Shown here piece after piece: positions 1-59,891 of a stretch of DNA of 59,891 bases. Where the stretch lies: the IMG/VR virus record IMGVR_UViG_3300006111_000001; one strand, 5' to 3'. The notes beneath the pieces are model-generated. The model made no database searches and had not been told where the DNA came from. It saw nothing but the letters and a program-made list of their open reading frames with translations. The stretch's first letter is position 1. The number at the start of each line of letters is the position of its first letter. Origin of the DNA: a virus. A program made the position numbers and the translations under genes.

Positions 1-120
1 TCAGATTGATATAGGTTGACGTGGAAACGGTCGGAGTCGCCGTCAACGTATCGCCGCTTTTCAAAAACAAATATGGATTTCCATAATTGTCCAATGGCAA
101 ACCCTGCCAAGTTGCAGAAT
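1..120. repeat. Terminal direct repeat, left copy (identical to 59772..59891)
   Basis: The first 120 nt of the window (tcagattgatataggttgacgtgg...gttgcagaat) recur exactly at the last 120 nt. The repeat lies inside the 3' end of a minus-strand ORF, so it is more likely circular-assembly overlap or terminal redundancy than an att site. Confidence 0.9.
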
Positions 121-450
121 TGAACATATTGACATTAAGCGCAGTCGAAACCGCACCGGCACCAGCCGGGATAGCAACCGTTGTTTGATAATAATTGACC
201 GCTGATCGGGTCACAAAAACCTGCACATTGTAAGCCGTGGACGTACAAGTATTTGCCGCTGTCAACGAAAAACACGCCGACCCATTGGCCCCAGCCGTGT
301 AAATCGTCACATTGTTAGCCGCATTGGATTGCACAAGGCCCAACGTAGGCGTTTGAACGGTTACAACGCTATTGGGCGTCGTTGCTGCATTGACCCCGCT
401 TGCAATGCCCACAAGTGATAATACAAGGGCCGAACTACAATAAAATTGAC
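1..450 (-). CDS. Fibre-module protein with signal-like N-terminus, T/N/G-rich (149 aa)
   Basis: Hand translation from ATG at 450..448 (MNARQFYCSSALVLSLVGIASGVNAATTPNS...STYINL) to TGA at 3..1. Not in the ORF track. Hydrophobic N-terminus followed by low-complexity T/A/N-rich sequence like the neighbouring fibre-module proteins. Confidence 0.45.
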
Positions 451-456
451 GCGCGT

Positions 457-1947
457 TCATTTTATGCCTCCAAAAGACCCCATAAGCACGGACACAGACG
501 CAGCTTGAATGTAAGCCGCCGTTGTTCCGCTAGATGATGTTCCGCAAGAAAAACCGGTGCCATTTGTGTAATTTAAATGATTGCCACCCGTATCCGTACA
601 TGATGGTAAGGTTGCAGCAGTTGGGCTTGCGGTTGAAGCGGTGACGTTTGCCACCACCGTATTTGCTGATTGTGTAGCGTGCATCGGTAAAGTGACCGTT
701 GCGGTATCCCCAGAAGTGATTACCGTGCCATTCACAGCTGGAATTGTTGTTGTAAAATTGGACGCTCCGGCGTTTGCCATGGTCAATGTATTAGCGCCCG
801 TCGATGACCCCAAAATCTTTATTGTTGAATTGTTATACGTTTGAACCGCCGTCCAAGTTTGCGCCAAATTCAATTCGGCAATGGTTCCGGTATTAGCTGG
901 TAAGGTTGCCGTGGTTGATCCGGCCACCGCTGTGGGAACAATCGTTGTGGCGCCACTTGTGGCACCTTGCATTATCAACGATCCGCCAACCGGCCCCGTT
1001 GATTGACCCAAAGTCAAAGCACCATTGGAAATCGTTGCATTGGCATTACCAGACACGGCATTTGTGGTTGAGGCGTAATAACTCAATTGCCCGGACGTAC
1101 CGGAATTGACCGTACCCGATCCGCCCGAAATAGTATTGCAGCCAAACCCCGTACTTGTGGTCCAAGTCAGCGCACTGGTCGCAGCCGAGCAAGATGGAAT
1201 GGCAAAAGACGCAATGTTAGCCGTTGACCCGGTGTTATTCCCCAAAATCGTGTTAGCCGTAATTTGCGGCAAATTTGCCAAAGTCAGACTATTTGACGGG
1301 AATGTAATCGTGGACGTTGCTTGCAGAGTGGTAAATTTGCCCGTGCTGGCCGTTGTGACGCCCACCGCCATGCTATTCAAACCGGTTGACGTTATGCTGC
1401 CAACGCTTGTTGGCGAAACAGTCCCCCCACCGGAATAAAAATTGATAACGCCCCCGGTTCCAAGCGCACCAATGTCAAATTCACCATCTGTAGTATAAGT
1501 ATAAGCCGCATGAGCAGCTGTAAACGGAGCTGCGGCCCCAGCACTATTATTTATGCCAAAATCCGCATAATGCGTTGAATCATTGCCATCGTCCGCCGTT
1601 ACAACAAAGTCAGATGAGGCACTTGATCCGCTATTGGTATTTTGAAGGCTCAATTGATAGAAATTATTGGCGTTTCCGGTAAATTGAAACGCCGTTGCGC
1701 CAGAACTTGTATATCCCGGCACACCCACATTGGTTCCCAGCGCAATTGATCCGCTTGTGGTGATCGGATTGGCCGTACAGGTTAAGCCGCCATTGGTCGA
1801 ACACGTCACAGACGTAACCGTACCCGATCCGCTGCCACCACTTGACGCCCCCGACGAAATCACAATTCCACTATTTCCCAATTGCTGAGCAATTGCGGGA
1901 ACGCAAACAATCAAGCCAAATAAAACAATAGCAAGCCGCTTCATCAT
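457..1947 (-). CDS. Putative tail fibre / receptor-binding protein, G/S/T-rich
   Basis: 496 aa; hydrophobic signal-like N-terminus (MMKRLAIVLFGLIVCVPAIAQQ); extreme Gly/Ser/Thr/Asn richness; sits in the distal tail module. Confidence 0.5.
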   Translation of the reverse strand: MMKRLAIVLFGLIVCVPAIAQQLGNSGIVISSGASSGGSGSGTVTSVTCSTNGGLTCTANPITTSGSIALGTNVGVPGYTSSGATAFQFTGNANNFYQLSLQNTNSGSSASSDFVVTADDGNDSTHYADFGINNSAGAAAPFTAAHAAYTYTTDGEFDIGALGTGGVINFYSGGGTVSPTSVGSITSTGLNSMAVGVTTASTGKFTTLQATSTITFPSNSLTLANLPQITANTILGNNTGSTANIASFAIPSCSAATSALTWTTSTGFGCNTISGGSGTVNSGTSGQLSYYASTTNAVSGNANATISNGALTLGQSTGPVGGSLIMQGATSGATTIVPTAVAGSTTATLPANTGTIAELNLAQTWTAVQTYNNSTIKILGSSTGANTLTMANAGASNFTTTIPAVNGTVITSGDTATVTLPMHATQSANTVVANVTASTASPTAATLPSCTDTGGNHLNYTNGTGFSCGTSSSGTTAAYIQAASVSVLMGSFGGIK

Positions 1948-25827: not shown

Positions 25828-27513
25828 CTATGCCGCAACTTGAACTTTAACCGTCTCAGGCGGCAAATACCTTGCTCGCTCCTCATCGGTTAAGGTTGCA
25901 GGGTTTTTGCACGTGACTTCCAACGTCCCCAAATGAACCACTTGGAATGTCAAATCAACATCGCACCAGATTTGATACCCAGCTTTGCGAACCTTGCGAC
26001 AGAAATTCAAATCTTCCGAAAAATACAAAAATTCTTTGCCGTCATGGCCCAAAGTGTAATTCTCGTTGATCCACTCCGCTAATGGCGTGCCATCCAAACT
26101 GTCCAAAACCTCTTGCGGCGGCACGTCCGTAAAATAATCTTTCAGCAAAGATTTGAACCCATCCAGCCGGGTTTCACCTTGCCAATGATAGGTTTCAAAA
26201 TATGACGGCCATTGCGTCTTGCGGTACACATCACATTTGACCAGCAACAACCCGCCAGGCAGCAACAAAGCTTCCTGTAACCCGCCTTCCATAACCGATT
26301 GCGGGTTTTTAAAGGTCCCCAATGTTTCATAGGGCGGCACGCGCTTATTATAAGTCGCGCCCACAATGTCTTTCTTGTGGTTCAACAACCGAATAAGCGT
26401 ATCCGGTGGAAACTTCATATCTGAATCCACCCACAGGATAAAATCGCATCCTGTATCCAAAGCTTTTTGAACCGTGGAGTTGCGGGAATGCGTAATCATC
26501 GAAGATTGAACATTGATAATGGCGGTATCAATCCCGGCCCGTGCCGAATAAGTCAGCAGCCCCGCCACATCAACCGCCGTTCCCGCTTCCCATGTCCGGC
26601 CAGATGGAATAGCAATACCCACCCGCAACGGACGCGGGATGGATTTTTTAATCTCAGCAATGTGCTTTTCAGCCGCCGCTTTGATTTGCAAATACTTGTC
26701 AGATGGCGCGTGATCCATCTTGGCCGACACTTGCTTGATCAATTCCGGATTGCGCAGGTGCTTAATCTTTTCATAGCAAAAGGCTTGGGCTTGCGGCAAA
26801 CGTTCAAGCATGGCCCGGAACGCAGCCGTTTCTTTGCCGCCAAACGCCACTTCACCCAGAATAAACGCGTCTCGGCACCGAACAGGATGCGTTGCCTCAA
26901 AATAGCCAAGCCAAAATTCAAACTCAACCAAACCGTGAGTAAGCCCCTTGCCTTCGGGCATTAACACATCAAGATCAACCTCGATCAATTGGCCAAACAC
27001 CGTGGCGATTTCATCCCACCACGTATCGCCAAACCAATTTGGAAACCCATTGGGCATGAAATACCCAAGTGTCTCATAGACCTTGCGAGGAATGACCGGC
27101 AGAGACGGAAACCCCTGATGCCCCGCATCCCGCAGGTGCATGACCCCAATCCCATTGACCAGTCCCTTGGCCGCATTAAAAATGCGATTGGGCCATTTGG
27201 CATCATCATCCAAAGTATAGTCATCGGCAAAAGCCATCAGATACTTACCTTGAGATTTTTCAGCCAAAGCATTGTAAACCGCTGCCAATGTCCCATGTCG
27301 CTCACCCAGCACGACGGACAATTGCCGACCGGGGATTTCAAGCGTGCCAAGCAATTCAACCGCTTCGGTATAAGTTGAATCGTCGTCGTCTAGTGCAATA
27401 AGCACTTCGACATTTGGCGGGATTTTGCGGTTAATCATCAAAGATGATACGGCGCGCAAAAGATTGCCGGGACGACCCCGCGACGGGATCAGGACAGAAA
27501 TTTCAATGGTCAT
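25828..27513 (-). CDS. Two-domain glycosyltransferase (GT-A fold, GT2-like N-domain plus second DxD domain)
   Basis: 561 aa; N-terminus ISVLIPSRGRP...ALDDDDS (GT2-like); second domain with WVDSDMKF (DxD) and C-terminal FSEDLNFCRKVRKAGYQIWCD. Confidence 0.65.
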   Translation of the reverse strand: MTIEISVLIPSRGRPGNLLRAVSSLMINRKIPPNVEVLIALDDDDSTYTEAVELLGTLEIPGRQLSVVLGERHGTLAAVYNALAEKSQGKYLMAFADDYTLDDDAKWPNRIFNAAKGLVNGIGVMHLRDAGHQGFPSLPVIPRKVYETLGYFMPNGFPNWFGDTWWDEIATVFGQLIEVDLDVLMPEGKGLTHGLVEFEFWLGYFEATHPVRCRDAFILGEVAFGGKETAAFRAMLERLPQAQAFCYEKIKHLRNPELIKQVSAKMDHAPSDKYLQIKAAAEKHIAEIKKSIPRPLRVGIAIPSGRTWEAGTAVDVAGLLTYSARAGIDTAIINVQSSMITHSRNSTVQKALDTGCDFILWVDSDMKFPPDTLIRLLNHKKDIVGATYNKRVPPYETLGTFKNPQSVMEGGLQEALLLPGGLLLVKCDVYRKTQWPSYFETYHWQGETRLDGFKSLLKDYFTDVPPQEVLDSLDGTPLAEWINENYTLGHDGKEFLYFSEDLNFCRKVRKAGYQIWCDVDLTFQVVHLGTLEVTCKNPATLTDEERARYLPPETVKVQVAA

Positions 27514-28776: not shown

Positions 28777-28938
28777 CTAACCCCCGCTCAATTTGGCAAA
28801 AATAACGCGCCAATGATTGGGCATCGGATCAGAACCAACCACCGCCCATCCGGCAGCACCATGCGCGTTTAATCGTTGAGCCAATTCTTCCGGTGTCATC
28901 CGTGGGAAATCGACCACGTTATACTCGTATGTGTTCAT
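28777..28938 (-). CDS. Small protein translationally coupled to portal
   Basis: 53 aa (MNTYEYNVVDFPRMTPEELAQRLNAHGAAGWAVVGSDPMPNHWRVIFAKLSGG); its ATG overlaps the portal TGA (ATGA). Not in ORF track. Confidence 0.3.
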   Translation of the reverse strand: MNTYEYNVVDFPRMTPEELAQRLNAHGAAGWAVVGSDPMPNHWRVIFAKLSGG

Positions 28939-30800
28939 TGACTGCCCCCGTTCCCAATGCCGTGCAGCATGGCTTGAACCGCGTTTTGCCCCCCGCCCAC
29001 GTCAATATCCGATAGTGTTTTGGCCCCTTGAACCGCCGCCAGGCTGGCTTGCCCTTGTTGCTGCGCTTGCATCTGCGCCGCGCGTTGCTGACGCAATGCC
29101 GCAACCTTCTCAGGCGAATTAAGGATATGTTTGGGAATAAATAAATCATCCGCGTATTCGCGCATCCAGGCATCCCGATCCCAAATATCAGCGATGGACG
29201 GATCACCCGCTTGCATGTTCCCAGCCGTACCAGCAAACCGCTCAAGCGCGGACGTGGACGAGGCTTTTTGCGCCAAGGCCAACATGCCCACAAACTCAAT
29301 TCCGATATTCACGCCCTGTAACGATTTGGGCAGCGGCGGCAGCAAACCCTTGCGTTGCATAATCGCAAACACCCGCTTAACCGCAGGTGCTAGGGCTTCA
29401 TTCTGTAACCGCTCAATCACCGGACCCAGCACTTGCAGCTTTTCTTGTTGCCGTTGTGCAACTTCATAAGCGGTCATGTTCTTGTTCGATGCCGTTTCCA
29501 GCATCATGAACAGGTCATTAAAGAACCCCTCTTTGATCCGCTGTTGAATTGCGGCCAAGTCTTGCATCATGTGATCAATGTTGGGCTGAACCGTATAAAT
29601 CGGTCGCATGCCCTTGCCATTGTCCAATTGATTCACATAAGTCACTTTGCCGGGCAGGATCGAGGAAGGCTCATTCTTCAAATCCATCGAAGCAAGCATT
29701 GGCGGACGCACCATTTTTTCAATGGCTTCCGCTTTGCGCATTGTCTCGACTTGCAACTGCATAATGTCCGGGAGCACGTCCATGCCCACCGAACGCCCAT
29801 AAGCATCATTGGACGTTGTGGCCCAGCGTGGAGCGTAATGCGGTTGGTCTAAGAAGCCCCGCATGGATAGGGGATAAGCCCCACCGGCACCCCAGACCCA
29901 ATAGACCTCGCGCCAGACAAAATCCCCATCCACGACGCCGACATTGCCGGAGCCATTAGGCGTCTTAATGGGAAAATTTGGCTCAATCGCATGCGCCACG
30001 GTCCGTTCGACTTCAAGCGAACCGCCCTTTTCCATCCACAGCTTTTGAATGTCAGACGGGCAATTCTCAATCCCAAACATTTCCACAATCGCGGAAACGG
30101 TCATAACAAATTGGCGATAAAGAGATTCAACCCGATTGGCCGATGACGAAGCCAAGAAATACTCACCGCAGCATGGCGTATAAGCACGGATCACATCTTC
30201 ATCATCCTCGTAAAGAATGACCGGACCCGTCCCAAAGGTCACCAAATCTTCAAACATTTGGGCGCCAGCGTCATAGAAGTTCGACCGGCCCATGACCTCG
30301 TAAACGCGGTTCTCGCATTCTTCAAACCAATCAACTGCGTCATCATCCATATCTGAACGATCAAGCAGCCCAGGCTTTAATTTGAACCACGGGCGAGATG
30401 GAGACATTAAACCGCTCATCATACCAGCCGCACACTTACGCATGGCCAGCGTGCCCGTAGGATCGACAATCGCGTCATTAATAGGCGAGCCGCGCACCAT
30501 GCTATTGGGTGTCGGCATTGCATTGTTAATAAAAATGCCCCGGCGCGGCAGGATATAGGTTTCAAGGATCGACCAATGCGACGCCCAGCTTTGCCGCCAG
30601 GATCGAAGCATGGCCAGCCGTGTCTCTAAATGCCCGCGCAGGATCAGCCAGTCATTGCCTTGCGTTACTTCGCGCACCGAAGCTTTGGCCGGTGTCATGG
30701 CTAATGCTTTTGGCCCGGCGCTTTCATACGCGACCTCGCGCGCCTTACGGCCCGGCTTGGAGCGTGTATCCGGACGGTCTGTAACCGCAGCGTCACTCAT
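28935..30800 (-). CDS. Portal protein
   Basis: 621 aa; position immediately after terminase; size and composition consistent with podovirus portal/connector proteins. Confidence 0.55.
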   Translation of the reverse strand: MSDAAVTDRPDTRSKPGRKAREVAYESAGPKALAMTPAKASVREVTQGNDWLILRGHLETRLAMLRSWRQSWASHWSILETYILPRRGIFINNAMPTPNSMVRGSPINDAIVDPTGTLAMRKCAAGMMSGLMSPSRPWFKLKPGLLDRSDMDDDAVDWFEECENRVYEVMGRSNFYDAGAQMFEDLVTFGTGPVILYEDDEDVIRAYTPCCGEYFLASSSANRVESLYRQFVMTVSAIVEMFGIENCPSDIQKLWMEKGGSLEVERTVAHAIEPNFPIKTPNGSGNVGVVDGDFVWREVYWVWGAGGAYPLSMRGFLDQPHYAPRWATTSNDAYGRSVGMDVLPDIMQLQVETMRKAEAIEKMVRPPMLASMDLKNEPSSILPGKVTYVNQLDNGKGMRPIYTVQPNIDHMMQDLAAIQQRIKEGFFNDLFMMLETASNKNMTAYEVAQRQQEKLQVLGPVIERLQNEALAPAVKRVFAIMQRKGLLPPLPKSLQGVNIGIEFVGMLALAQKASSTSALERFAGTAGNMQAGDPSIADIWDRDAWMREYADDLFIPKHILNSPEKVAALRQQRAAQMQAQQQGQASLAAVQGAKTLSDIDVGGGQNAVQAMLHGIGNGGSQ

Positions 30801-31157
30801 CCGAGCAGCGATGCCTTGGCCGTTGTCGCCGGTGTCGTTAAGCCACCAGCCCCGCCATCATTCTTGACAGTCCCGCTAAATCCCGCACCCGCCGCAGCAG
30901 CAGCTTTGCCCTTTTGTGAATTGCCAGCCTGATCGACATTTGCATTGGCCATAATTGGCGGCGCCGCAGCCGGTGGCACAGCAGGAATAACAGGAGCTTG
31001 AGGTGTCGGAGGTGACGAAAATAACGCGCCCAAAGGTCAATCCTCACGGTTAAGTGAGGCAAAATCTAAACCCGACGCATGGTCATTTGTGTTCTATGGG
31101 TGCGAATTGCACCCTATATGCCCCACGATTGGGGGCGGCAAAGCGGATATTTGGGTG

Positions 31158-31952
31158 CTATCGCTTGCCCCATGCAGAGGCGAGAGGATTGTAATCAACT
31201 TCATGTTTGTTTGGTCGCAACCCAGCGCGCACGCGGTAATCGTCAACCGGACGAAATGCGGCAATGTCAATCCCGCTCATAATCCCATACCGCATGCAGT
31301 CCATTAAATGGTCATTTTCTTTGACCACTTGCCCCTTATCGTCCCGGCGATAAATGCGATACTCGCTTAACGTATTTTGCAGCGTTTTAAATATTTTAAG
31401 CCGCCCCGTCGATAATCGCATCCAGGTCCGATATATGCCCGCTTCCCTCGCATTATTGGCCGTAATCAGCGTTAATCCTAATTGTTGATATTCCCATAAC
31501 AATTGCTCGCCATCCTTTTGTGCTCGACCGCGTGACGCCGGATCAATAACCCCCGGTATCCACTCTCCGCGCGCCTTAATGGCTTGAGCGTGAGTCGATG
31601 GTTCAGCCTGCCCGCGATAATGTTCAGAATAAGCGTAAACCACGTCCGATTCGGTATCATGCGCAAACCACAATCCCGCCGTTCTATTCCATCCCACGTC
31701 CATGGCGTAAAAATGTTTCCAATGAGCGGGTATTTCGAACGGATCACAGGTCACGTCATCTTCCGGCACCGGATAAATGGCGCCCGATCCAAGGGCCGGA
31801 ATGCCTTTGGTGCGCGCGTCCCGTTCATGCGGAGCATAAGACTTAATCATTTCCGCTTGCGCTTCCGCTGATATGTGCGGAACGTCTGCCCAGGAAACGA
31901 ATGTAATGTATTTCGCCATTTCCGTTAGCCGTTTTGCAAAGCAACGGCCCAA
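31158..31952 (-). CDS. terL: Terminase large subunit, C-terminal nuclease portion
   Basis: 264 aa; RNase-H-like terminase nuclease pattern (…HFYAMDVGWNRTAG…, …ENDHLMDCMRYG…). Probable true start is MAKYITF at ~31919, 5 nt after the HNH stop. Confidence 0.7.
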   Translation of the reverse strand: MGRCFAKRLTEMAKYITFVSWADVPHISAEAQAEMIKSYAPHERDARTKGIPALGSGAIYPVPEDDVTCDPFEIPAHWKHFYAMDVGWNRTAGLWFAHDTESDVVYAYSEHYRGQAEPSTHAQAIKARGEWIPGVIDPASRGRAQKDGEQLLWEYQQLGLTLITANNAREAGIYRTWMRLSTGRLKIFKTLQNTLSEYRIYRRDDKGQVVKENDHLMDCMRYGIMSGIDIAAFRPVDDYRVRAGLRPNKHEVDYNPLASAWGKR

Positions 31953-32449
31953 CGCTTGCCGCGAACAATGCGCCCAATTTGCGTTTGTTTTACCCCAAAC
32001 ATTTCACCTAATTGTCGTTGATAAAATTTGCCGCTTTTCCAAAGGCTTAATATCTTACGCACATCATCGACAGACAAGACGGCGTTATGATGCCGCTCAC
32101 CCATCAAACTTGTCCCATGCTTTCGCTTGTCCAAATGATTTGACGACCGAGTATCCCATCTTAGATTTGAATAATGGTTATTCGATGGATCGCCGTCGAT
32201 ATGGCAAATTTCCGCCCCGTCAAACGGCTTTAACCCTATAAAAGCATACGCAACCAATTGATGAGCTTTTTTGTGGATCGACTTACCATCCTTACGCAAA
32301 ATCACCATTGGATAGCCGTCAGATCGAATCCACATCTTCAATATTTTGCCAATGCGCGCGCCGGGAGCAGCCGTAACGCGACGAACAGCGCCCCATTCAC
32401 TAACTTCATAATCCTCAAAACCAGGCACAATCCGCCATTCAGCAATCAT
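31925..32449 (-). CDS. HNH homing endonuclease inserted within terL
   Basis: 174 aa; N-terminal NUMOD4-like (YEVSEWGAVRR) and HNH core (HQLVAYAFIG…ICHIDGDPSNNHYSNLRWDTRSSNH). Start overlaps the TerL-ATPase stop (ATGA). Confidence 0.8.
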   Translation of the reverse strand: MIAEWRIVPGFEDYEVSEWGAVRRVTAAPGARIGKILKMWIRSDGYPMVILRKDGKSIHKKAHQLVAYAFIGLKPFDGAEICHIDGDPSNNHYSNLRWDTRSSNHLDKRKHGTSLMGERHHNAVLSVDDVRKILSLWKSGKFYQRQLGEMFGVKQTQIGRIVRGKRWAVALQNG

Positions 32450-33219
32450 GACTTAACCTCCCCTTCCAAACGCGCACCACCCGGCATGAATGAAAGAACC
32501 ACAGCCGAAAGGCCGCGCAGCGGCGTGAACCCGCATATCACCAACCCGGACGGTTGACCGGGCACGGTCGAAAGCGTTCGAGTTAAGCCTTCCGAGTAAA
32601 TGTCCAATGGCGGTTCTTCATCAAATTGCATAATGTCGATTTTGGCCGCTTGGAACGATTCACGCCCCTGATCATAGGATTTAAACAGCATCCGCGACAC
32701 GCCGCCCGATAAATGCTTGACCGTCACGCTATCCACAGCATCCGGCACGCCCGGCCTTGGTGTCGCCTTGATGATATTGTCAGCCGGTATTAAACCCGTG
32801 CCATGGTCCCCGGTTGGCCCCAAATACGTCACTTGCAAGGATTCGCGGACGGCCTTGGTATCTTCGCCCGCCGCCCACATGGTCACAGGGCGATCAAACT
32901 TGCGCCCAACCCACCAATGGGGATACCAACCAGTTAAATGAAGGGCGCACTCATACGAACACCCAAACGTCTTTCCCGATCGGTTGCCGCCGACCAAAGC
33001 CCGCTCTTGATACGTGGCCCCAGCCGCAAAATGGGCCAAATGCTTAGGGTATAATTCGCGCCGCAATGGCCCGGTATCAGGATAAGCCCGGTAAAGCAGC
33101 GTCTTGCGGTAAATGTCATGCTCTAATTCGATAATGGCCTTAAGGCGCGCATAATCATCCACCGGCAGCGCTGCCAATTGTTCTGGCGTCAGCGCCGCAA
33201 CTTCATCGAACAAAGCCAC
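32446..33219 (-). CDS. terL: Terminase large subunit, N-terminal ATPase portion
   Basis: 257 aa; Walker A (GGNRSGKT), Walker B-like (IDIMQFDEEPP); ends where the HNH ORF begins. Confidence 0.75.
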   Translation of the reverse strand: MALFDEVAALTPEQLAALPVDDYARLKAIIELEHDIYRKTLLYRAYPDTGPLRRELYPKHLAHFAAGATYQERALVGGNRSGKTFGCSYECALHLTGWYPHWWVGRKFDRPVTMWAAGEDTKAVRESLQVTYLGPTGDHGTGLIPADNIIKATPRPGVPDAVDSVTVKHLSGGVSRMLFKSYDQGRESFQAAKIDIMQFDEEPPLDIYSEGLTRTLSTVPGQPSGLVICGFTPLRGLSAVVLSFMPGGARLEGEVKS

Positions 33220-33421
33220 ATTCGCCGCCTAACCGATGGTACAATGCTTTTACAGCCAGAAACGCCATAACCGGGCAATAGCCCGTTTCCCAATTCTGAA
33301 CCGTGCGCGCGGTCACGTCTAATACCAAAGCCAATTCAGCACGCGATAGGCCCAATAATTCCCGATATTCAGCCAATCGAGCGGCAAAATTGACCTGTTT
33401 GGAAATATTTTCAGTAACCAC
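33203..33421 (-). CDS. Small HTH (XRE-like) protein
   Basis: 72 aa; …LGLSRAELALVLDVTARTVQNWETG… helix-turn-helix pattern. Confidence 0.45.
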   Translation of the reverse strand: MVTENISKQVNFAARLAEYRELLGLSRAELALVLDVTARTVQNWETGYCPVMAFLAVKALYHRLGGECGFVR

Positions 33422-33456
33422 CGCGCAAACTCCTCATTTTTAAGAAATAATTTCCA

Positions 33457-33903
33457 TCAATGAACTTTTGACGGGGCAATCTCGCGCGCTTTCTTCATAA
33501 TCATCATAGCATCGGCAACGCGCTCGTTTGGCGCCATTTCCTTAACGGTATGCTCAATCGACCCTTTGTGCTCATGCTCGTGCTTTTGAACGAACAATTT
33601 GAGATACTCGCCCAGCTTTGCCCAAGCGGTCACACGCGCCCCGTGTGACGAACCTTCACCTGTACGCCGAGCCTCGGTCAAAAGCCCGTCCAGCACCAAA
33701 TCTGCCGTGATTTCAGCCGTTTTTATTTGCTTTGACACCAATTGAGCCACAGCCGCCTTCACCTGAGCATTCCCTAGCAAGCGCGGACCATTAACCTCTG
33801 CGCTTTTAGCCGAGTACCCAGCCCGGATAGCCGCTTGTGTCGCGTTTAAATCCTTAACGTATTCAAGAACAAAGCGTTGTTGCTTGGGGTTCAGGTCGCT
33901 CAT
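33457..33903 (-). CDS. terS: Terminase small subunit (Terminase_2/P27 family)
   Basis: 148 aa; N-terminal signature LNPKQQRFVLEYVKDLNATQAAIRAGYSAKSAEVNGPRLLGNAQVKAAV. Confidence 0.75.
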   Translation of the reverse strand: MSDLNPKQQRFVLEYVKDLNATQAAIRAGYSAKSAEVNGPRLLGNAQVKAAVAQLVSKQIKTAEITADLVLDGLLTEARRTGEGSSHGARVTAWAKLGEYLKLFVQKHEHEHKGSIEHTVKEMAPNERVADAMMIMKKAREIAPSKVH

Positions 33904-42457: not shown

Positions 42458-43120
42458 ATGGAAACTTTAGGTAAACGAGTGCGCGCCCGTCGCGCTGATT
42501 TAAAATTGTCTCAAGCGGAACTTGCCAGCCGCGTGGGCATATCTCAGCCGTCTTTATCAGCCATTGAAAATGACGAGACTCAAGGCACCACCAAAATATT
42601 AAAGCTGGCAGAAGTATTGGAATGTGACCCCAATTGGCTTTTGATGGGCAATAAACTAAAGTTTAGCGTCCCCAACAAACTTACAACTTATAAAAATAAT
42701 CCTGTTGCAAACGAATCAGTTTTTACTACCATCAATATGGGCAAAAGAGACTTACCTATTAGAGGTCTGGCTCAAGGGGGTGATGGGGTGCTAACATTTG
42801 ACCAAGACGCAATAGATTATACTTTTCGTCCATCTAATTTAGTCGGCATAGATGAAGCGTTTGCGCTTTATGTTACCGGCGACTCCATGGGCGAAGTCTT
42901 GATCCCAGGCACTTTGTTATTGGTTCACCCCAAACAAGAACCAAAAATTATGGATTTTGTCGTTATTGAAAAAATTGACCGATCCGTAATCGTTAAACGA
43001 TTGGTTCGCAGATCGGCCAATAGCGTCACCTTGCGCGAATACGACCCGCCCAATGATTTTGTGCTTTCTCGCAGCGAAATTCGAATGATGTTGCGGGTTT
43101 GCGGGACGGCCATGGAATGA
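42458..43120 (+). CDS. CI-like repressor (HTH_XRE plus S24 LexA-like peptidase domain)
   Basis: 220 aa; N-terminal …LKLSQAELASRVGISQPSLSAIENDET… HTH; C-terminal …FALYVTGDSMGEVLIPGTLLLVHP…VIVKRL… with Ser and Lys catalytic-dyad context. Confidence 0.8.
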   Translation: METLGKRVRARRADLKLSQAELASRVGISQPSLSAIENDETQGTTKILKLAEVLECDPNWLLMGNKLKFSVPNKLTTYKNNPVANESVFTTINMGKRDLPIRGLAQGGDGVLTFDQDAIDYTFRPSNLVGIDEAFALYVTGDSMGEVLIPGTLLLVHPKQEPKIMDFVVIEKIDRSVIVKRLVRRSANSVTLREYDPPNDFVLSRSEIRMMLRVCGTAME

Positions 43121-44179: not shown

Positions 44180-44740
44180 ATGCTATTCACAATCCCTTTC
44201 CGTTCATGGACTGGCAAAGCCGCATTTGAGGTCGAGATCGCCGACGATGTTGAACCGCGCTTTCAAATGCGCGCTGCCTTGTCGGTTGTGATCGGCAAAG
44301 CCAAAGAAAAGGGCGAACGTGCCAATCTCAGCCGTGCCGATCTCAGCGGTGCCGATCTCAGCGGTGCCTATCTCAGCGGTGCCGATCTCAGCGGTGCCTA
44401 TCTCAGCGGTGCCAATCTCAGCGGTGCCGATCTCAGCGGTGCCGATCTCAGCGGTGCCTATCTCAGCGGTGCCGATCTCAGCGGTGCCTATCTCAGCCGT
44501 GCTAAAGGTGCATTTTCGCTTGGAACGCCGGATGGTTGGTCGGCTGTTGCTTGGCTGCGCGACGGTTTCTTATCGATCCGCGTCGGTTGCCGAGATAAGC
44601 GGTTAGATGAAGCCCGCGCATATTGGGCCAATAAAAATGACCGGTGCGAAGTTATGGCGGCGCTGGATTACGCTGAAATAATTGCGCGCCTTCGTGGTTG
44701 GGCCATTGAAGCACCGGCTGAACAAGTGGCAGCGGAGTAA
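44180..44740 (+). CDS. Pentapeptide-repeat protein
   Basis: 186 aa; central run of ~12 consecutive pentapeptides A(D/N/Y)LSG ([25 protein letters not shown]…) flanked by unique N- and C-terminal segments. Confidence 0.75.
44327..44503 (+). repeat. Tandem 15-bp repeat (~11.8 copies) encoding the pentapeptide repeats
   Basis: Near-identical units ctcagcggtgccgat / ctcagcggtgcctat / ctcagcggtgccaat in head-to-tail array. Confidence 0.9.
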
Positions 44741-50341: not shown

Positions 50342-51375
50342 GCCTCAGCGTGCCACGGCTCCATATCGTCGGGGACCGCTTTTATTGGCGCCCCACGGCC
50401 CCTATCCGTGCTTTGGGGTTTTCTTACGAGGCTTTGGGCAAAGACCCCATGAAAGCCGCTGCAAGGGCCAGGGAGCTTAATGAACAGGTCGAGCGGGCCA
50501 AACTAGGGTTGGATGCCAGGACCAAGCGCGGCGACACGGTGGCAGCCCTGATCGACGCCTATCAGTCCTGCCCCCGGTATAAGAGCCGGGCGGAAACCAC
50601 CCGAAAGGGCTATGACCATTTCCTAAAACACATCCGCGCGCTTGCCGGGCATGTCATTGTGGCGACCATTGACCGGCCCGGCATGTTGCAGACCTATGAG
50701 AAGCTAATCGCCGCCAGGGGCCTTTATACCGCCAATGCGTATATGAAGGTCTGGCAGATATTGCTTAAGCACGCCTATGACCTCGGATGGCGCAAAGATA
50801 ACCCCGCCGCCGGGCTTGGGCTTCAAACGCCGCCGCCGCGAGAGCAAGTCTGGACGGTCGATCAAATCCTTGCATTTTGTGATGCCGCCGTGGAAATGGG
50901 CAGGCCGTCCATGCGTCTGGCGATGCTATTGGCCTATGACCTTGGGCAACGCCCTGGCGACTATATCAAGCTGACTTGGACCACTTACACCGGGTCCGGG
51001 TTTATGATTAAGCAGTCCAAGACCAAAACCCGCGTCAATGCGCCGTTCGAAAACCCGTTTCTTTGGGCTGAAATCGACGCCATGCCGCGCAAACACTCGC
51101 ATGTCTTGATTTGTGAGGGGACCAAAGCCCCCTATAAGGCTGATTATTTCCGGCACCTATGCACCAAGATCAGGCGCGCGGCCAAACTGCCGGAACAGCT
51201 TCAATTCCGCGATCTGCGCCGGACAGCCGCCACGGAAATTGGCAATGCCGGGGCAACAGATGATCAGTTACGGGCGCTCCAAGGCTGGAAAACCCGGAAT
51301 CAGGCGGCGACTTATGTGGTGGTATCGTCAGCCGGTGCCGAAGGCGCTCAAGCGAAACGGAGGGCGAACAGGTAA
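50323..51375 (+). CDS. int: Tyrosine integrase
   Basis: 350 aa; N-terminal SAM-like and C-terminal catalytic patterns (…GQRPGDYIKLTW…, …FRDLRRTAATEIGNAG…LQGWKTRNQAATYV…). Confidence 0.8.
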   Translation: MGQIRLSLSVPRLHIVGDRFYWRPTAPIRALGFSYEALGKDPMKAAARARELNEQVERAKLGLDARTKRGDTVAALIDAYQSCPRYKSRAETTRKGYDHFLKHIRALAGHVIVATIDRPGMLQTYEKLIAARGLYTANAYMKVWQILLKHAYDLGWRKDNPAAGLGLQTPPPREQVWTVDQILAFCDAAVEMGRPSMRLAMLLAYDLGQRPGDYIKLTWTTYTGSGFMIKQSKTKTRVNAPFENPFLWAEIDAMPRKHSHVLICEGTKAPYKADYFRHLCTKIRRAAKLPEQLQFRDLRRTAATEIGNAGATDDQLRALQGWKTRNQAATYVVVSSAGAEGAQAKRRANR

Positions 51376-53404: not shown

Positions 53405-54031
53405 CTAATTTGCTTTGCGCTTTTTGCAATCGCGCAATCGTGTGTAAATAATGCTTTCGCTGACTTTCAGCTTGGCCGCGATTTGCTTGATCGTCAGCCC
53501 TTCCTTGCGGAGGGCTTTAATCTGTTTCAGCTTTTCAGCGGTTAGTTTCTTGGGCGCACCTTGCCAGCCGCCCTCACGTTCTTTAAACGCCTGAATACCG
53601 GCTTTAGTCCGTTCAATGGTTAGCTGGCGTTCAAATTCCGCGACAATGGCGAATAGGCCAAGGATTAGCTTGCCGGTTGCTGTGCTGAAATCGAATTGCT
53701 CTGTCAGGGATTTAAAAGACGCGCCCGCATCGGAAATCTGGTCTAGCCGTGCGTATAGTTCACGCATATTGCGGGCCAGCCGATCTAGACGCCAGACCAC
53801 AAGGGTATCGCCCTCGCGCAAATCTTTCATGGCGTGTTCAAGTGCCGGTCTGGACTTAGACGCCGCCGATTTTTTTTCGATGTGGAGATTGTCGGGCAAC
53901 ACCCCGGCACGCTTAAGCGCGTCCACTTGAAGGTCAAGTTTCTGATCTTCTGTGAACACGCGGGCATACCCGATTAATCGGGTCGCGGGCAGGTCTGGCA
54001 ATTTTGTGCGTCGTTTCAAAACCATGACCAC
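53405..54031 (-). CDS. Serine recombinase (Hin/Gin invertase-resolvase family) with Phe in place of the catalytic Ser
   Basis: 208 aa; strong family match (…DTLVVWRLDRLARNMRELYARLDQISDAGASFKSLTEQFDFSTATGKLILGLFAIVAEFERQLTIERTKAG… plus C-terminal HTH), but the nucleophile motif reads GYARVFTEDQ (codon ttc) instead of GYARVSTxxQ. Confidence 0.75.
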   Translation of the reverse strand: MVMVLKRRTKLPDLPATRLIGYARVFTEDQKLDLQVDALKRAGVLPDNLHIEKKSAASKSRPALEHAMKDLREGDTLVVWRLDRLARNMRELYARLDQISDAGASFKSLTEQFDFSTATGKLILGLFAIVAEFERQLTIERTKAGIQAFKEREGGWQGAPKKLTAEKLKQIKALRKEGLTIKQIAAKLKVSESIIYTRLRDCKKRKAN

Positions 54032-55661: not shown

Positions 55662-56834
55662 TTGATTCGCTCATTCAACTACATCCCAGCGCGTGCAGCC
55701 GGTCAAATTTTGTTTGACGGATTCCCATATCAATCCGCGATTGAGTGGCCCAATTTCATTCATGGCCAATGTCAAAACATTCAAGCCAATGGTCAGCCCG
55801 ATCAATTTGGATGGCGATACAAAACCATTGACGGCACCCCTTACCTTTTGGCCGATGACCCATTTGTGGTCAAATTAAAAAACGCAATGGTTCAGCGCGT
55901 CAATTTTGGTCAAGACCGCTGGCACGTTGCCGTCAGCCCAGGGGTTTGTATTGAAGAAACCTATTATTCGGGCGAATGGTTTAACCGTTTTTGCGGTCAA
56001 ACCATGAGAATCCCCACCAATGCCGGATCGTTTGACGTGCATGTCATGGAAGATATTGCGCCAGAGTCGGTGTCATCCGTCCCCAGCGTATTATTGGCTC
56101 ATCAATGGGACACGAATTATGCGCATTGCCTAATGGAAACCGTGGGAAAATTGTTTTTAGCAGAACATTGGGACGATCATTTGCCGCAGCTAATCTGGAA
56201 CCCGACAACCCCATATCAGCGCGAGATTGCGGATTTGCTATCAATCAAATACGTTCCGCAAACCCAAAAAGCCGTTCAATACGATGAATTATATGTCATT
56301 TCCCAATTTGCCCATAACGGGATTTGCGCGGAACAGTTCAAACAAATCCGCGCGCTGTTTCAACAAAGGCTTTGCGACAAAATCCCTTATTTCTCAAATC
56401 CCCCAGTTACATCAGGCAACAAGCGCATTCTGATTTCCAGAAACGACGCCACCAGCCGCCGTATTGCTAATGAATCAAACATAATGACCGCCCTGGCTCC
56501 CATGGGCTTTGAGCGTGTCACGTTGAGCAATTTAAGCGTGCTCGACCAGGCCAAGCTATTTCATTCAGCATCAATCATTGTGGCGCCACACGGCGCCGGA
56601 TTAATGAATATGCTGTTTGCCAGCCCCAGCACCGCCTTGATTGAAATTGCCCCCGAATCCTACCAGCACCCTTTGTTCTGGTACGTCGCCAAGTGGTTGG
56701 GCCATTGGTACGGGCGAATCATCACCCCGGATCACGGTTCCGAAAAAGACATGATTGTTGACATTGCGGCGGTTAAAAACGCCATTGACGCCGCCATATC
56801 GTCTAAAAGTGTACGGTCATCACTTGTTGCATAG
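55662..56834 (+). CDS. Glycosyltransferase, GT61/DUF563-like
   Basis: 390 aa; C-terminal …RILISRNDATSRRIANESNIMTALAPMGFERVTL…LFHSASIIVAPHGAGLMNMLFASP… resembles the DUF563/GT61 core. Confidence 0.55.
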   Translation: MIRSFNYIPARAAGQILFDGFPYQSAIEWPNFIHGQCQNIQANGQPDQFGWRYKTIDGTPYLLADDPFVVKLKNAMVQRVNFGQDRWHVAVSPGVCIEETYYSGEWFNRFCGQTMRIPTNAGSFDVHVMEDIAPESVSSVPSVLLAHQWDTNYAHCLMETVGKLFLAEHWDDHLPQLIWNPTTPYQREIADLLSIKYVPQTQKAVQYDELYVISQFAHNGICAEQFKQIRALFQQRLCDKIPYFSNPPVTSGNKRILISRNDATSRRIANESNIMTALAPMGFERVTLSNLSVLDQAKLFHSASIIVAPHGAGLMNMLFASPSTALIEIAPESYQHPLFWYVAKWLGHWYGRIITPDHGSEKDMIVDIAAVKNAIDAAISSKSVRSSLVA

Positions 56835-57378: not shown

Positions 57379-57640
57379 TCCGGCAATTGGCTTCGACATT
57401 ACGATTGTGAATAACCGCCCATTGCTTTTCCGAACGCGTCCATCTTGATTCAAAATCTGAATCAGGATGGACTTCGGAAAGCCACCCGCACGCAGTTGGA
57501 TTAGGCGCCGGATTTTCCGCGCAACTCGCTGTCAAGATCAGCGTCAGACATGCGCCGCACATCATCATGAATGATTTGAGCATTTCGATCCTCCGCAACA
57601 GCGGATTGCAAATCAACCGCTTGTTGTTCAATTCGGCCAT
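57368..57640 (-). CDS. Lipoprotein, o-spanin-like (overlapping the i-spanin-like gene)
   Basis: Lipobox-like …LILTASC…, Pro-rich; overlaps 57501..57734 in another frame as in Rz/Rz1 pairs; likely starts at an internal Met. Confidence 0.4.
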   Translation of the reverse strand: MAELNNKRLICNPLLRRIEMLKSFMMMCGACLTLILTASCAENPAPNPTACGWLSEVHPDSDFESRWTRSEKQWAVIHNRNVEANCRTKN

Positions 57641-57734
57641 GATCCCTTAATCCCTTGTCTCGAACCATATCAACAATCTTCGCCCCTATGGACGACACGA
57701 TGGTCGAGACAAGGGATAAAAGGGCTTCAATCAT
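57501..57734 (-). CDS. i-spanin-like protein (N-terminal TM plus charged helical segment)
   Basis: 77 aa; MIEALLSLVSTIVSSIGAKIV hydrophobic N-terminus then charged helix. Confidence 0.4.
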   Translation of the reverse strand: MIEALLSLVSTIVSSIGAKIVDMVRDKGLRDHGRIEQQAVDLQSAVAEDRNAQIIHDDVRRMSDADLDSELRGKSGA

Positions 57735-58084
57735 TGACCAGCCGTTTGTTGCGCGCCATGGGCTTGAGCAATGGCCGTTGACAGAGCAACCGCCAGTGAC
57801 GCCGCCCCAGCCTTTACACCCGCCGCAACCGCCGCTTTAGCCGTGCTGGACGCCGCATCGCCAATGGCTTGAGCCGCAGCATGCAAATCAGTCGGATTGC
57901 TGGCAACCGCTTGAATGGCCGAAGTGGCAAATTGTTCCGCAAACGGAATCAATGTGGCCACTTCGGCGTGTTCAATTTGAGAAACAGCATCGGTCACAAA
58001 CGGCTCGACAGCCTTGTGAAACCATTGTGAAAACCAAGACATATTAAACCCCGTTTGTTTGAAGGGATTGAGGATCAATTTCAC
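57731..58084 (-). CDS. Hypothetical Ala-rich protein in lysis cassette
   Basis: 117 aa. Confidence 0.35.
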   Translation of the reverse strand: MKLILNPFKQTGFNMSWFSQWFHKAVEPFVTDAVSQIEHAEVATLIPFAEQFATSAIQAVASNPTDLHAAAQAIGDAASSTAKAAVAAGVKAGAASLAVALSTAIAQAHGAQQTAGQ

Positions 58085-58355
58085 GGATTAACTTGCGCCG
58101 GATGGCATCCACCAACGGCACCAAAGACGCCCCCACAATCAGCGCCACTTCATCGCCAGGCACAACCAATTGACCGGCGCTCAGGCAATGAATGACCCAT
58201 TGCAACACAAGCCCAGCGCCAGCCGTGGACATGGCAACAGCGGACGTGGAAGTATTTTGACTGGTGTTCATAACATTACCCTGATAAAGCCGACGCAGCC
58301 GCTTGAGCAAGCTGATTATCGGTATATGGATCAGACCCGTTTTCGTGATGGACAA
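58044..58355 (-). CDS. Hypothetical membrane protein
   Basis: 103-aa track ORF with hydrophobic helices; overlaps neighbours, start uncertain. Confidence 0.3.
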   Translation of the reverse strand: MSITKTGLIHIPIISLLKRLRRLYQGNVMNTSQNTSTSAVAMSTAGAGLVLQWVIHCLSAGQLVVPGDEVALIVGASLVPLVDAIRRKLIREIDPQSLQTNGV

Positions 58356-58710
58356 TGGCGCGCGTCAACGGGATCAAAACCAATTGAGACGACAAATTCA
58401 CATATTCATCCGGTCCGCATCCGGTCAAATTGCACACATCGCTTTTATATGCCTCAGTGTCATTTTCCGATGGGGGCGCCCATCGATCAATTGCGCCAGA
58501 AATCGTATTAATGCCGTGCAGCACTTGATAATTTTTCAACGTAATCATCAGCGCCCGCAAACCATCTTCCGGCGTATCAAATTCGCAAAATTGATCGTCG
58601 GAACCCGGCACCACTTGCCCTTTCCAAATGGTTTTGGAAAGTTTGATATTGCCAGGATTGTTTAATCGAATGCCGCGCGCGGTCATTTTTTGATCCATCG
58701 TTTTTCGCAA
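58276..58710 (-). CDS. Lysis-cassette protein, candidate endolysin/cell-wall hydrolase
   Basis: 144 aa; conserved-looking N-terminal …RGIRLNNPGNIK… motif; flanked by holin-like and spanin-like genes. Enzymatic class not recognised with confidence. Confidence 0.35.
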   Translation of the reverse strand: MRKTMDQKMTARGIRLNNPGNIKLSKTIWKGQVVPGSDDQFCEFDTPEDGLRALMITLKNYQVLHGINTISGAIDRWAPPSENDTEAYKSDVCNLTGCGPDEYVNLSSQLVLIPLTRAIVHHENGSDPYTDNQLAQAAASALSG

Positions 58711-58901
58711 ATACGATAAACCCCGTGAACCGCAATAATCGCGCCACCAATGGCGCCAATTCCGTGCGCAACCCCCAACGTGCTTTCGACAAAATCATGC
58801 CATGTCGGCAACGTCATTAGAATGAATCCTAACGCGGCCTCAAGCGCACCGTGCAGCTCAGTCTTATGGTCCATTTCCCCATTACTCCAATACCGTGACA
58901 T
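58683..58901 (-). CDS. Holin-like small membrane protein
   Basis: 72 aa with two hydrophobic helices (…ALGFILMTLPTW… and …GIGAIGGAIIAVHGV…) and basic C-terminus. Confidence 0.4.
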   Translation of the reverse strand: MSRYWSNGEMDHKTELHGALEAALGFILMTLPTWHDFVESTLGVAHGIGAIGGAIIAVHGVYRICEKRWIKK

Positions 58902-58907
58902 GATTTT

Positions 58908-59759
58908 TTACCAAAAGATTGCCGCGTAACCCGCTGTTGCGTTACCACCTGATTGCGCGCTTGTACCAGCAGCGGCACCACCGCCACCACCACCATATCC
59001 AGAAGCATTACCGCCCGCTGCACCAGCGGCAGTAGCGTTGGCTCCATCGCCACCTTTGCCTAAGTACCCACCACCACCACCACCACCAGCCGTGCCGGAA
59101 GCTGCGCCCGATCCCCCCAAAGATGAACTTGAAAATAATGAGGCTGCACCATAGCCGCCTTGATAGACTGTACCTGAGTTGCGTTGACCAGCACCACCAC
59201 CACCTGGATAACCGCCGTCAGTAGAAGTGGTTGATCCAGAATAAATACCGCCCGGACCGCCACCACCAGACATGCCCCCTGGATAAACAAGCGCTTTATT
59301 AAGGCCACCACCGGCTGAGTAAGTAACACCACCAACAACTAACGTGGTAGCTGTGCCATTACCGCCAATTGCACCACTTGCAGCAGCGCCAGCAGCGCCA
59401 ATTGTTATGGTTGCACTAGACCCAATGTAGACGGGGAAAAATTCAACGCCACCAGCACCACCGCCGCCGCCGCCCTCTGTTCCACTTGCAGGGGTGCCAT
59501 TGCCAGCAGCACCCCCGCCAACAAGTAAAACGTAATAAACGCCATACCCTTTGCCTTGCGTGACCGGATTAAATGTCCCGCTTGCCGTGTAGGCAACTTG
59601 ATAATTAAGACCGCTTAGGCCAATAAATGCTTTGCCAGCAGCGGGACCCGCCCCAGGCGCAACATTCAACGGCGTTGCAACCGCAAAGCCTAACTGACCA
59701 ATTGCGAATAAAAGCGCAATTAATCCAAAGCGAAGATTCTTAAGCATTTTAGAAATCAC
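58908..59759 (-). CDS. Glycine-rich fibre-module protein with signal-peptide-like N-terminus
   Basis: 283 aa; MISKMLKNLRFGLIALLFAIGQLGFAVA leader; long poly-Gly/Ala/Ser tracts; precedes the lysis cassette. Confidence 0.5.
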   Translation of the reverse strand: MISKMLKNLRFGLIALLFAIGQLGFAVATPLNVAPGAGPAAGKAFIGLSGLNYQVAYTASGTFNPVTQGKGYGVYYVLLVGGGAAGNGTPASGTEGGGGGGAGGVEFFPVYIGSSATITIGAAGAAASGAIGGNGTATTLVVGGVTYSAGGGLNKALVYPGGMSGGGGPGGIYSGSTTSTDGGYPGGGGAGQRNSGTVYQGGYGAASLFSSSSLGGSGAASGTAGGGGGGGYLGKGGDGANATAAGAAGGNASGYGGGGGGAAAGTSAQSGGNATAGYAAIFW

Positions 59760-59771
59760 CGCAAACAGAGG

Positions 59772-59891
59772 TCAGATTGATATAGGTTGACGTGGAAACG
59801 GTCGGAGTCGCCGTCAACGTATCGCCGCTTTTCAAAAACAAATATGGATTTCCATAATTGTCCAATGGCAAACCCTGCCAAGTTGCAGAAT
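59772..59891. repeat. Terminal direct repeat, right copy (identical to 1..120)
   Basis: Exact 120-nt match to window start; implies a unit genome of ~59771 bp. Confidence 0.9.

Follow-up and report, generated by a model that had tools for sequence, protein, structure and literature searches.

A 120-bp terminal identity as the very probable assembly overlap of a circularly mapped, temperate podovirus-like phage genome

The window analysed here, a stretch of viral DNA of 59,891 nt taken at its full length, carries the same 120 bp at its start and at its end. This identity is almost certainly the overlap left by an assembler that circled a 59,771-bp map once, the second copy being no part of the phage genome. 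The phage in the window is temperate and podovirus-like, and its genome, which is complete at 59,771 bp, has a circular map. In the course of events that would account for the repeat, the assembly graph of the phage was a simple cycle of 59,771 bp, which the program would have walked once before appending the initial 120 bases a second time; the point at which the circle was opened would be arbitrary and would have fallen by accident within a late gene. The physical source of the circular map could be linear virion DNA that circularises after injection or is cut from concatemers.

The terminal identity and permuted assemblies of the same phage

Both ends of the window were read and also compared by script, and positions 1-120 matched positions 59772-59891 base for base, just as a preliminary description of this DNA had claimed. 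The longest prefix of the window that is also its suffix measured exactly 120, with no extension, and the starting 30-mer was found at positions 1 and 59772 only, with no occurrence on the reverse strand. In a repeat search, this pair (family D2, spacing 59,771) was the sole long exact repeat of the window, the next longest being a 15-nt tandem array in a pentapeptide-repeat gene and imperfect matches of 20-40 nt. Chance or low complexity was rejected as the origin of the identity, given one exact 120-mer in 60 kb at 51% GC. The tandem array is made of about 13 copies of its 15-nt unit (44289-44528) and lies in the early region, within a plus-strand ORF (44180-44740) that encodes a pentapeptide-repeat protein (PF00805, E=3e-29). 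The features referred to throughout the text are collected in Table 1.

Table 1. Positions of the main features in the 59,891-nt window; lengths in aa refer to predicted products.
Feature	Position	Strand	Remarks
Left copy of the 120-bp identity	1-120	.	Very probably the only real copy on the circle; single-copy and interior in independent contigs
Right copy of the 120-bp identity	59772-59891	.	Very probably redundant, from assembly overlap; its removal gives the 59,771-bp unit
ORF-J, 5' part (codons 1-154)	1-460	-	ATG at 460-458; signal-peptide-like N-terminus; TAGANG at 281-298
ORF-J, 3' end (rest of codon 154, codons 155-160 and stop)	59749-59771	-	TAA at 59751-59749; outside the repeat; C-terminal GDF
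Fibre-like protein, 496 aa	457-1947	-	Directly upstream of ORF-J in the late operon
Glycine-rich gene, 279 aa	58908-59747	-	Signal-peptide-like N-terminus; two-allele cassette at 59154-59262
Putative lysis cassette	57501-58874	-	Downstream of the junction; genes of 63 aa, 136 aa (endolysin), 75 aa, 88 aa and 77 aa
Endolysin, 136 aa	58276-58686	-	phrog_873, E=1e-47
Portal protein	28935-30800	-	PF12236, T7-type head-tail connector, E=6e-137
Terminase large subunit (TerL), three parts	31158-33219	-	P22 family, 34.7% identity to P22 gp2
TerL nuclease half	31158-31919	-	ATG at 31919; ORF open to 31952
HNH_3 + NUMOD4 homing endonuclease, 174 aa	31925-32449	-	Inserted within TerL
TerL ATPase half	32446-33219	-	
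Terminase small subunit (TerS)	33457-33903	-	PF03592 (Terminase_2); like SF6 small terminase structures
CI/LexA-like repressor	42458-43120	+	HTH_3 + Peptidase_S24; temperate marker
Tyrosine integrase	50350-51375	+	PF00589; temperate marker; 8.4 kb from the junction
Serine recombinase, 206-208 aa	53405-54031	-	Resolvase + HTH_7; invertase-sized

Exact-protein look-ups in JGI, ENA/MGnify (MEGAHIT k141) and Logan assemblies yielded many further contigs of this phage, derived from other samples and other pipelines. In at least 12 independent contigs from JGI, ENA/MEGAHIT and Logan, the junction between the two ends of the window was contiguous and interior, at 100% identity and with a single copy of the 120-mer. 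A 720-bp junction probe (300 nt before and 420 nt after the junction) was recovered at eleven loci corresponding to nine independent contigs of JGI, ENA and Logan origin, again with 100% identity and one 120-mer copy, three of these eleven loci crossing the junction but ending too near to it to contain the whole 720 bp. When aligned to a doubled circle, all the fetched contigs gave a straight run through the junction, and none of about 35 ended at window position 1, 120, 59771 or 59891. Host DNA beyond the repeat, which the preliminary description had named as an observation that would speak against a circle, was looked for and was absent from every contig, the other end of the phage following instead. 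No match was found in IMG/VR for a 40-nt junction sequence, nor in the JGI metagenome collection for a 40-mer taken near the end of a sister contig.

In five further near-complete assemblies, at least 99.99% identical to the window, the circle is opened elsewhere. Two come from JGI: Ga0208872_1000169 of 3300025838 (59,897 bp), which starts at window position 56749, and Ga0208618_1000037 of 3300025435 (59,867 bp), which starts at 56758. The other three are ENA assemblies: k141_313729 of ERZ27271987 (59,912 bp, in reverse orientation, with computed ends at 31190 and 31050), k141_281405 of ERZ27271974 (60,180 bp, starting at 59058) and k141_325587 of ERZ27272006 (59,576 bp, ending at 59153). The junction is passed unbroken by three MEGAHIT k141 assemblies, for which k is greater than 120. 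The terminal overlaps of these sister assemblies were inferred from length arithmetic and not read: subtraction of 141 from the 59,912 bp of k141_313729 gives 59,771, the same unit as 59,891 - 120 for the window, and subtraction of 99 from the 59,867 bp of Ga0208618_1000037 gives 59,768, the unit expected with a 3-nt-shorter allele described below. For Ga0208872_1000169 the remainder is 126, and would become 127 only with a 1-nt indel in its unseen part. Thus, the preliminary proposal of a closed circle, on whose 59771 bp the genes should be read, agrees with both the junction contigs and the permuted assemblies.

The points at which the sister assemblies are opened were also compared with the variation in the population. 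A common G/A polymorphism (Val/Ile) was detected among 12 fetched loci at 56757, in the GT61-like glycosyltransferase gene (55662-56834), and both full-length JGI contigs start at this SNP or within 8 nt of it. Two short contigs likewise end or start beside it, this position serving as a break point for assemblies. Breaks in the two-allele cassette of the glycine-rich gene are seen in those MEGAHIT contigs that do not form a clean circle. Since the breaks sit at SNP 56757 or in this cassette, break points follow features of the graph and not genome ends. No population SNP was found beside the break point of the window itself, near either 59771 or 121.

The cassette (59154-59262) exists as two population alleles with 28 differences in about 110 bp, many of them spaced 3 nt apart, and with a net change of -3 nt (279 vs. 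278 aa), the rest of the genome being 100% identical. It looks like a recombined patch rather than a product of hypermutation, and many contigs break exactly at 59153, 59198 or 59263. A second variable patch lies at about 57.9-58.3 kb within the putative lysis cassette (contigs L091, L126 and L137), where genes of 62 and 103 aa replace those of 75 and 88 aa downstream of the endolysin gene and the alignment stops at about 57924. In addition, the 5' end of the serine recombinase gene contains the starting point of five independent contigs (53955 or 54018), which suggests a variable or rearranging site at 53955-54018.

The window can be compared in this respect with the contigs described in the CheckV paper. 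The complete-genome class of that program is defined by a direct terminal repeat (DTR) of at least 20 bp, the lengths of such repeats cluster at the k of the assembler, the circle is opened at random, and comparison of related DTR contigs reveals their permutation (Nayfach et al., 2021; PMC8116208). Like those contigs, the window has an exact identity of start and end, no further copy of the repeat and an arbitrary break point; its sister contigs are circular permutations, and their overlaps, as judged by length, equal k (141 in the case of the k141 contig and 99 in that of one JGI contig). Unlike the typical case, the overlap of the window is 120, an even number that matches no common odd k and lies outside the usual values (55, 77, 99, 127, 141).

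The gene that spans the junction

The preliminary description had placed the repeat in the 3' end of an ORF at 1..450. Its coding location was correct, but the start of the ORF is at 460 and the frame runs past position 1. On the circle, this gene (ORF-J) encodes 160 aa on the minus strand from positions 59749-59771 joined to 1-460; codons 114-154 correspond to the extent of the 120-bp repeat, and the ORF continues for 23 nt beyond it. An intact ORF-J is present at neither end of the linear window and the gene is whole only on the circle. Its ATG overlaps the stop codon (TGA) of the upstream 496-aa gene as ATGA, and a single nucleotide separates its own stop from the next minus-strand ATG (59747-59745), that of the 279-aa gene. 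As read from these gene boundaries, ORF-J is translationally coupled to both of its neighbours in the late operon.

It had also been proposed that the late operon crosses position 1, and the minus-strand block does go on into the glycine-rich gene and the lysis cassette. This late block extends from terS at 33.9 kb through terL, portal, capsid, tail and fibre genes, and then past position 1 to about 57.5 kb. The 77-aa gene of the putative lysis cassette gave a weak Rz-like match. The fibre-like repeat of the 496-aa protein is common to many IMG/VR contigs. A scan for promoter and terminator signals around the junction, carried out on one contig with the junction in its interior, detected them at background frequency only.

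Gene calling on independent contigs placed ORF-J, at 160 aa, between the genes of 496 aa and 279/278 aa, and a scan of JGI metagenome contigs revealed 12 distant homologues with 28-39% identity. In a family alignment with four of these homologues that extend to the C-terminus, an invariant TAGANG motif was present at residues 55-60 (window 281-298), and the C-terminal GDF/GDY (residues 158-160, window 59752-59760) was conserved, with D159 invariant and F or Y at position 160. As conserved parts of one protein flank the junction on both sides, the contiguous ORF-J is the functional arrangement. This conservation marks ORF-J as a genuine gene.

ORF-J belongs to an undescribed family of small proteins encoded in other environmental contigs, some of which carry two family members in tandem (213-1020 in L142 and 908-1628 in L143). 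Hydrophobic N-termini resembling signal peptides, of which MMKRLAIVLFGLIVCVPAIAQQ is an example, were observed in four consecutive minus-strand genes that end the tail-fibre region (1944-2339, 457-1947, ORF-J and 58908-59747), none of which had a match in Pfam or PHROG. As such N-termini are unusual for virion proteins, the products of these four genes may be secreted or envelope proteins.

Phage identity, terminase and packaging

The virion is of podovirus type, as indicated by tail tube proteins (phrog_376, phrog_394), a T7 gp14-like protein and an internal virion protein of 1826 aa. The closest isolates for the portal protein are BPP-1/epsilon15-like and related podophages, at 35-37% identity, and the capsid protein matches PF20911 'GP7' (E=1.5e-121). 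The presence of a tyrosine integrase, a serine recombinase and a CI/LexA-like repressor indicates, at the level of gene content, that the phage is temperate. No nucleotide-level match to isolated phages was obtained by megablast with 24 kb of sequence. When GTDB genomes were searched for prophages with the 1826-aa virion protein as query, only a 2.6-kb MAG fragment at 30% identity was detected, and neither a host nor an integrated copy was revealed. Scans of the window against Rfam and for tRNA genes gave no hit.

The portal proteins of the relatives found in IMG/VR (L021-L075) are 43-63% identical to that of the window, and these contigs have a different terminase, no match to the TerL of the window being detected within at most 10 kb on either side of their portal genes. 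Their use as a guide to the termini was rejected, as they are too distant and carry this different terminase. The packaging and head region (28935-33903) is a mosaic in which portal and capsid are BPP-1/epsilon15-like and TerL is of the P22 family, closest to that of EBPR podovirus 1.

Two glycosyltransferase-like genes were also observed. One, on the minus strand between the packaging and the head genes, encodes a GT2 + Anp1-like protein of 561 aa (25828-27513), and the other, on the plus strand near the integrase/recombinase region, a Glyco_transf_61 protein of 390 aa (55662-56834). By analogy with epsilon15-like phages, it is possible that they are genes for conversion of the surface polysaccharide (serotype).

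A terS gene, already mentioned in the preliminary description, was found upstream of terL, its product matching the SF6 structures 3ZQP/2CMP with E of about 1e-7. The terL gene is split: the stop of the ATPase half overlaps the start of the HNH endonuclease gene (ATGA), and the stop of the latter lies 5 nt before the ATG of the nuclease half. When the two halves were joined and compared with the intact TerL of EBPR podovirus 1 (52-54% identity), no residue was missing or duplicated at the split, and no intron was detected by Rfam, which argues that TerL is probably made as two polypeptides. The same split arrangement was observed in two IMG/VR contigs (L019 and L020). Interrupted terL genes are on record in other phages, so that this split is not new in kind.

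The joined TerL shares 34.7% identity with P22 gp2 over 85% of the protein (E=2e-66), and its nuclease half matches the structure of the P22 large terminase (4DKW, E=3e-23), but it is equally similar to the TerLs of short-DTR phages (phiEco32-like and LUZ24/PaP3-like). An NJ tree of 12 taxa placed the TerL of the window beside that of EBPR podovirus 1 with 76% bootstrap support; this pair belonged neither to the P22 clade (77%) nor to the phiEco32/LUZ24/KIT05 clade (81%).

With respect to the virion ends, headful (pac) packaging with circular permutation is a tentative guess to which we would give somewhat less than an even chance. It is suggested by the P22-family TerL, the SF6-like TerS and the temperate lifestyle, and is weakened by the similar identity of TerL to short-DTR packagers and by its position outside both clades in the tree; fixed ends elsewhere, either cos or a short DTR at another site, would share most of the remaining probability. 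Both terminase subunits are homologous to those of known pac phages, a homology that by itself does not fix the packaging mode. The window resembles P22 in its TerL family, in the order terS-terL-portal, and in being a temperate podovirus with a circular map. It differs from P22 in a TerL that branches outside the P22 clade with EBPR podovirus 1 and is split by an HNH endonuclease gene, in an SF6/SPP1-like TerS that is not a homologue of P22 gp3, and in a BPP-1/epsilon15-like portal and capsid. The likeness to P22-type pac packaging is one of genes and map.

Weighing the origins of the repeat

The short DTRs of T7, SP6, phiEco32 and LUZ24 are stretches of non-coding DNA between the late and the early region, with lengths of 160 bp in T7, 193 bp in phiEco32 and 184 bp in LUZ24. 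The 120 bp of the window could be a genuine DTR of this kind, generated by fixed terminase cuts in concatemers and duplicated on packaging of a linear virion DNA. Its length is of a similar order and, being even, matches no standard assembler k, a repeat shorter than k would be faithfully reproduced at both ends, and short-DTR packagers (KBNP1711/phiEco32-like and PaP3/LUZ24-like) are found, at 33-36% identity, in the TerL family that the phage has in common with phiEco32 and LUZ24. Junction-spanning contigs are also expected from the concatemers that a DTR phage would supply in infected cells sampled by cellular metagenomes, and so are no formal exclusion of a DTR. However, the whole repeat falls inside the conserved 160-aa gene, amid a late operon of tightly coupled genes (fibres, ORF-J, glycine-rich and lysis genes), and not in non-coding DNA at an early/late boundary; the phage encodes both an integrase and a CI-like repressor, whereas the short-DTR phages of the same TerL family are virulent; and its TerL falls outside the DTR clade in the NJ tree. 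Moreover, the three k141 assemblies cross the junction, no contig ends at the proposed termini, and the repeat is the break point in none of the other assemblies. A DTR here is very improbable. The preliminary description had also considered a T7-type repeat less likely, and its two grounds, the coding location and the presence of terS, hold. Were it true, each virion would carry the gene in two parts, one at either end of its DNA, and the gene would become whole only once the DNA had circularised or formed concatemers; fixed termini at such a site would be unusual for a phage, and the TerL lineage concerned is an uncharacterised one.

A pair of direct repeats that bounds an element is also the usual signature of att sites, and the phage has both a tyrosine integrase and a serine recombinase, so the repeat might be an attL/attR core duplication and the window an integrated prophage cut from a host contig. 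We give this reading hardly any credence, and an att duplication was rejected on the phage-to-phage junction contigs, the distance to the integrase and the absence of host flanks. The preliminary statement that the repeat is not at an integrase/att boundary is borne out: the integrase is 8.4 kb from the junction, which argues against an att duplication next to it, the repeat is inside an ORF of the phage structural region, phage DNA follows it in every independent contig, the tRNA scan found no tRNA gene in the window, and other assemblies close the circle at unrelated positions. That the 120 bp are the real terminal redundancy of one headful-packaged molecule, as captured for example by a single-molecule long read, is hardly more than negligible in probability, in spite of packaging genes similar to those found in headful phages. 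The redundancy of a headful phage typically amounts to 2-10% of its genome, or 1-6 kb at this size, far above 120 bp (0.2% of the genome), and the error-free identity and the k-like overlaps of the sister assemblies (141 and 99) point to a short-read graph artefact. Of the two origins offered earlier, circular assembly overlap or terminal redundancy, the overlap therefore stands, whereas 120 bp as a headful redundancy does not, as kilobases would be needed.

With assembly overlap as the preferred reading, the repeat would be a routine sign of a complete assembly, without biological function, and the ends of the window would carry no information on virion termini or packaging mode. Annotations that make it a DTR, an att site or a packaging feature should be avoided, and one of the 120-bp copies should be trimmed to leave the complete genome of 59,771 bp. 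On the coordinates of the linear map, the 160-aa junction gene is either lost or found in two fragments, and the late operon seems to stop at the edge.
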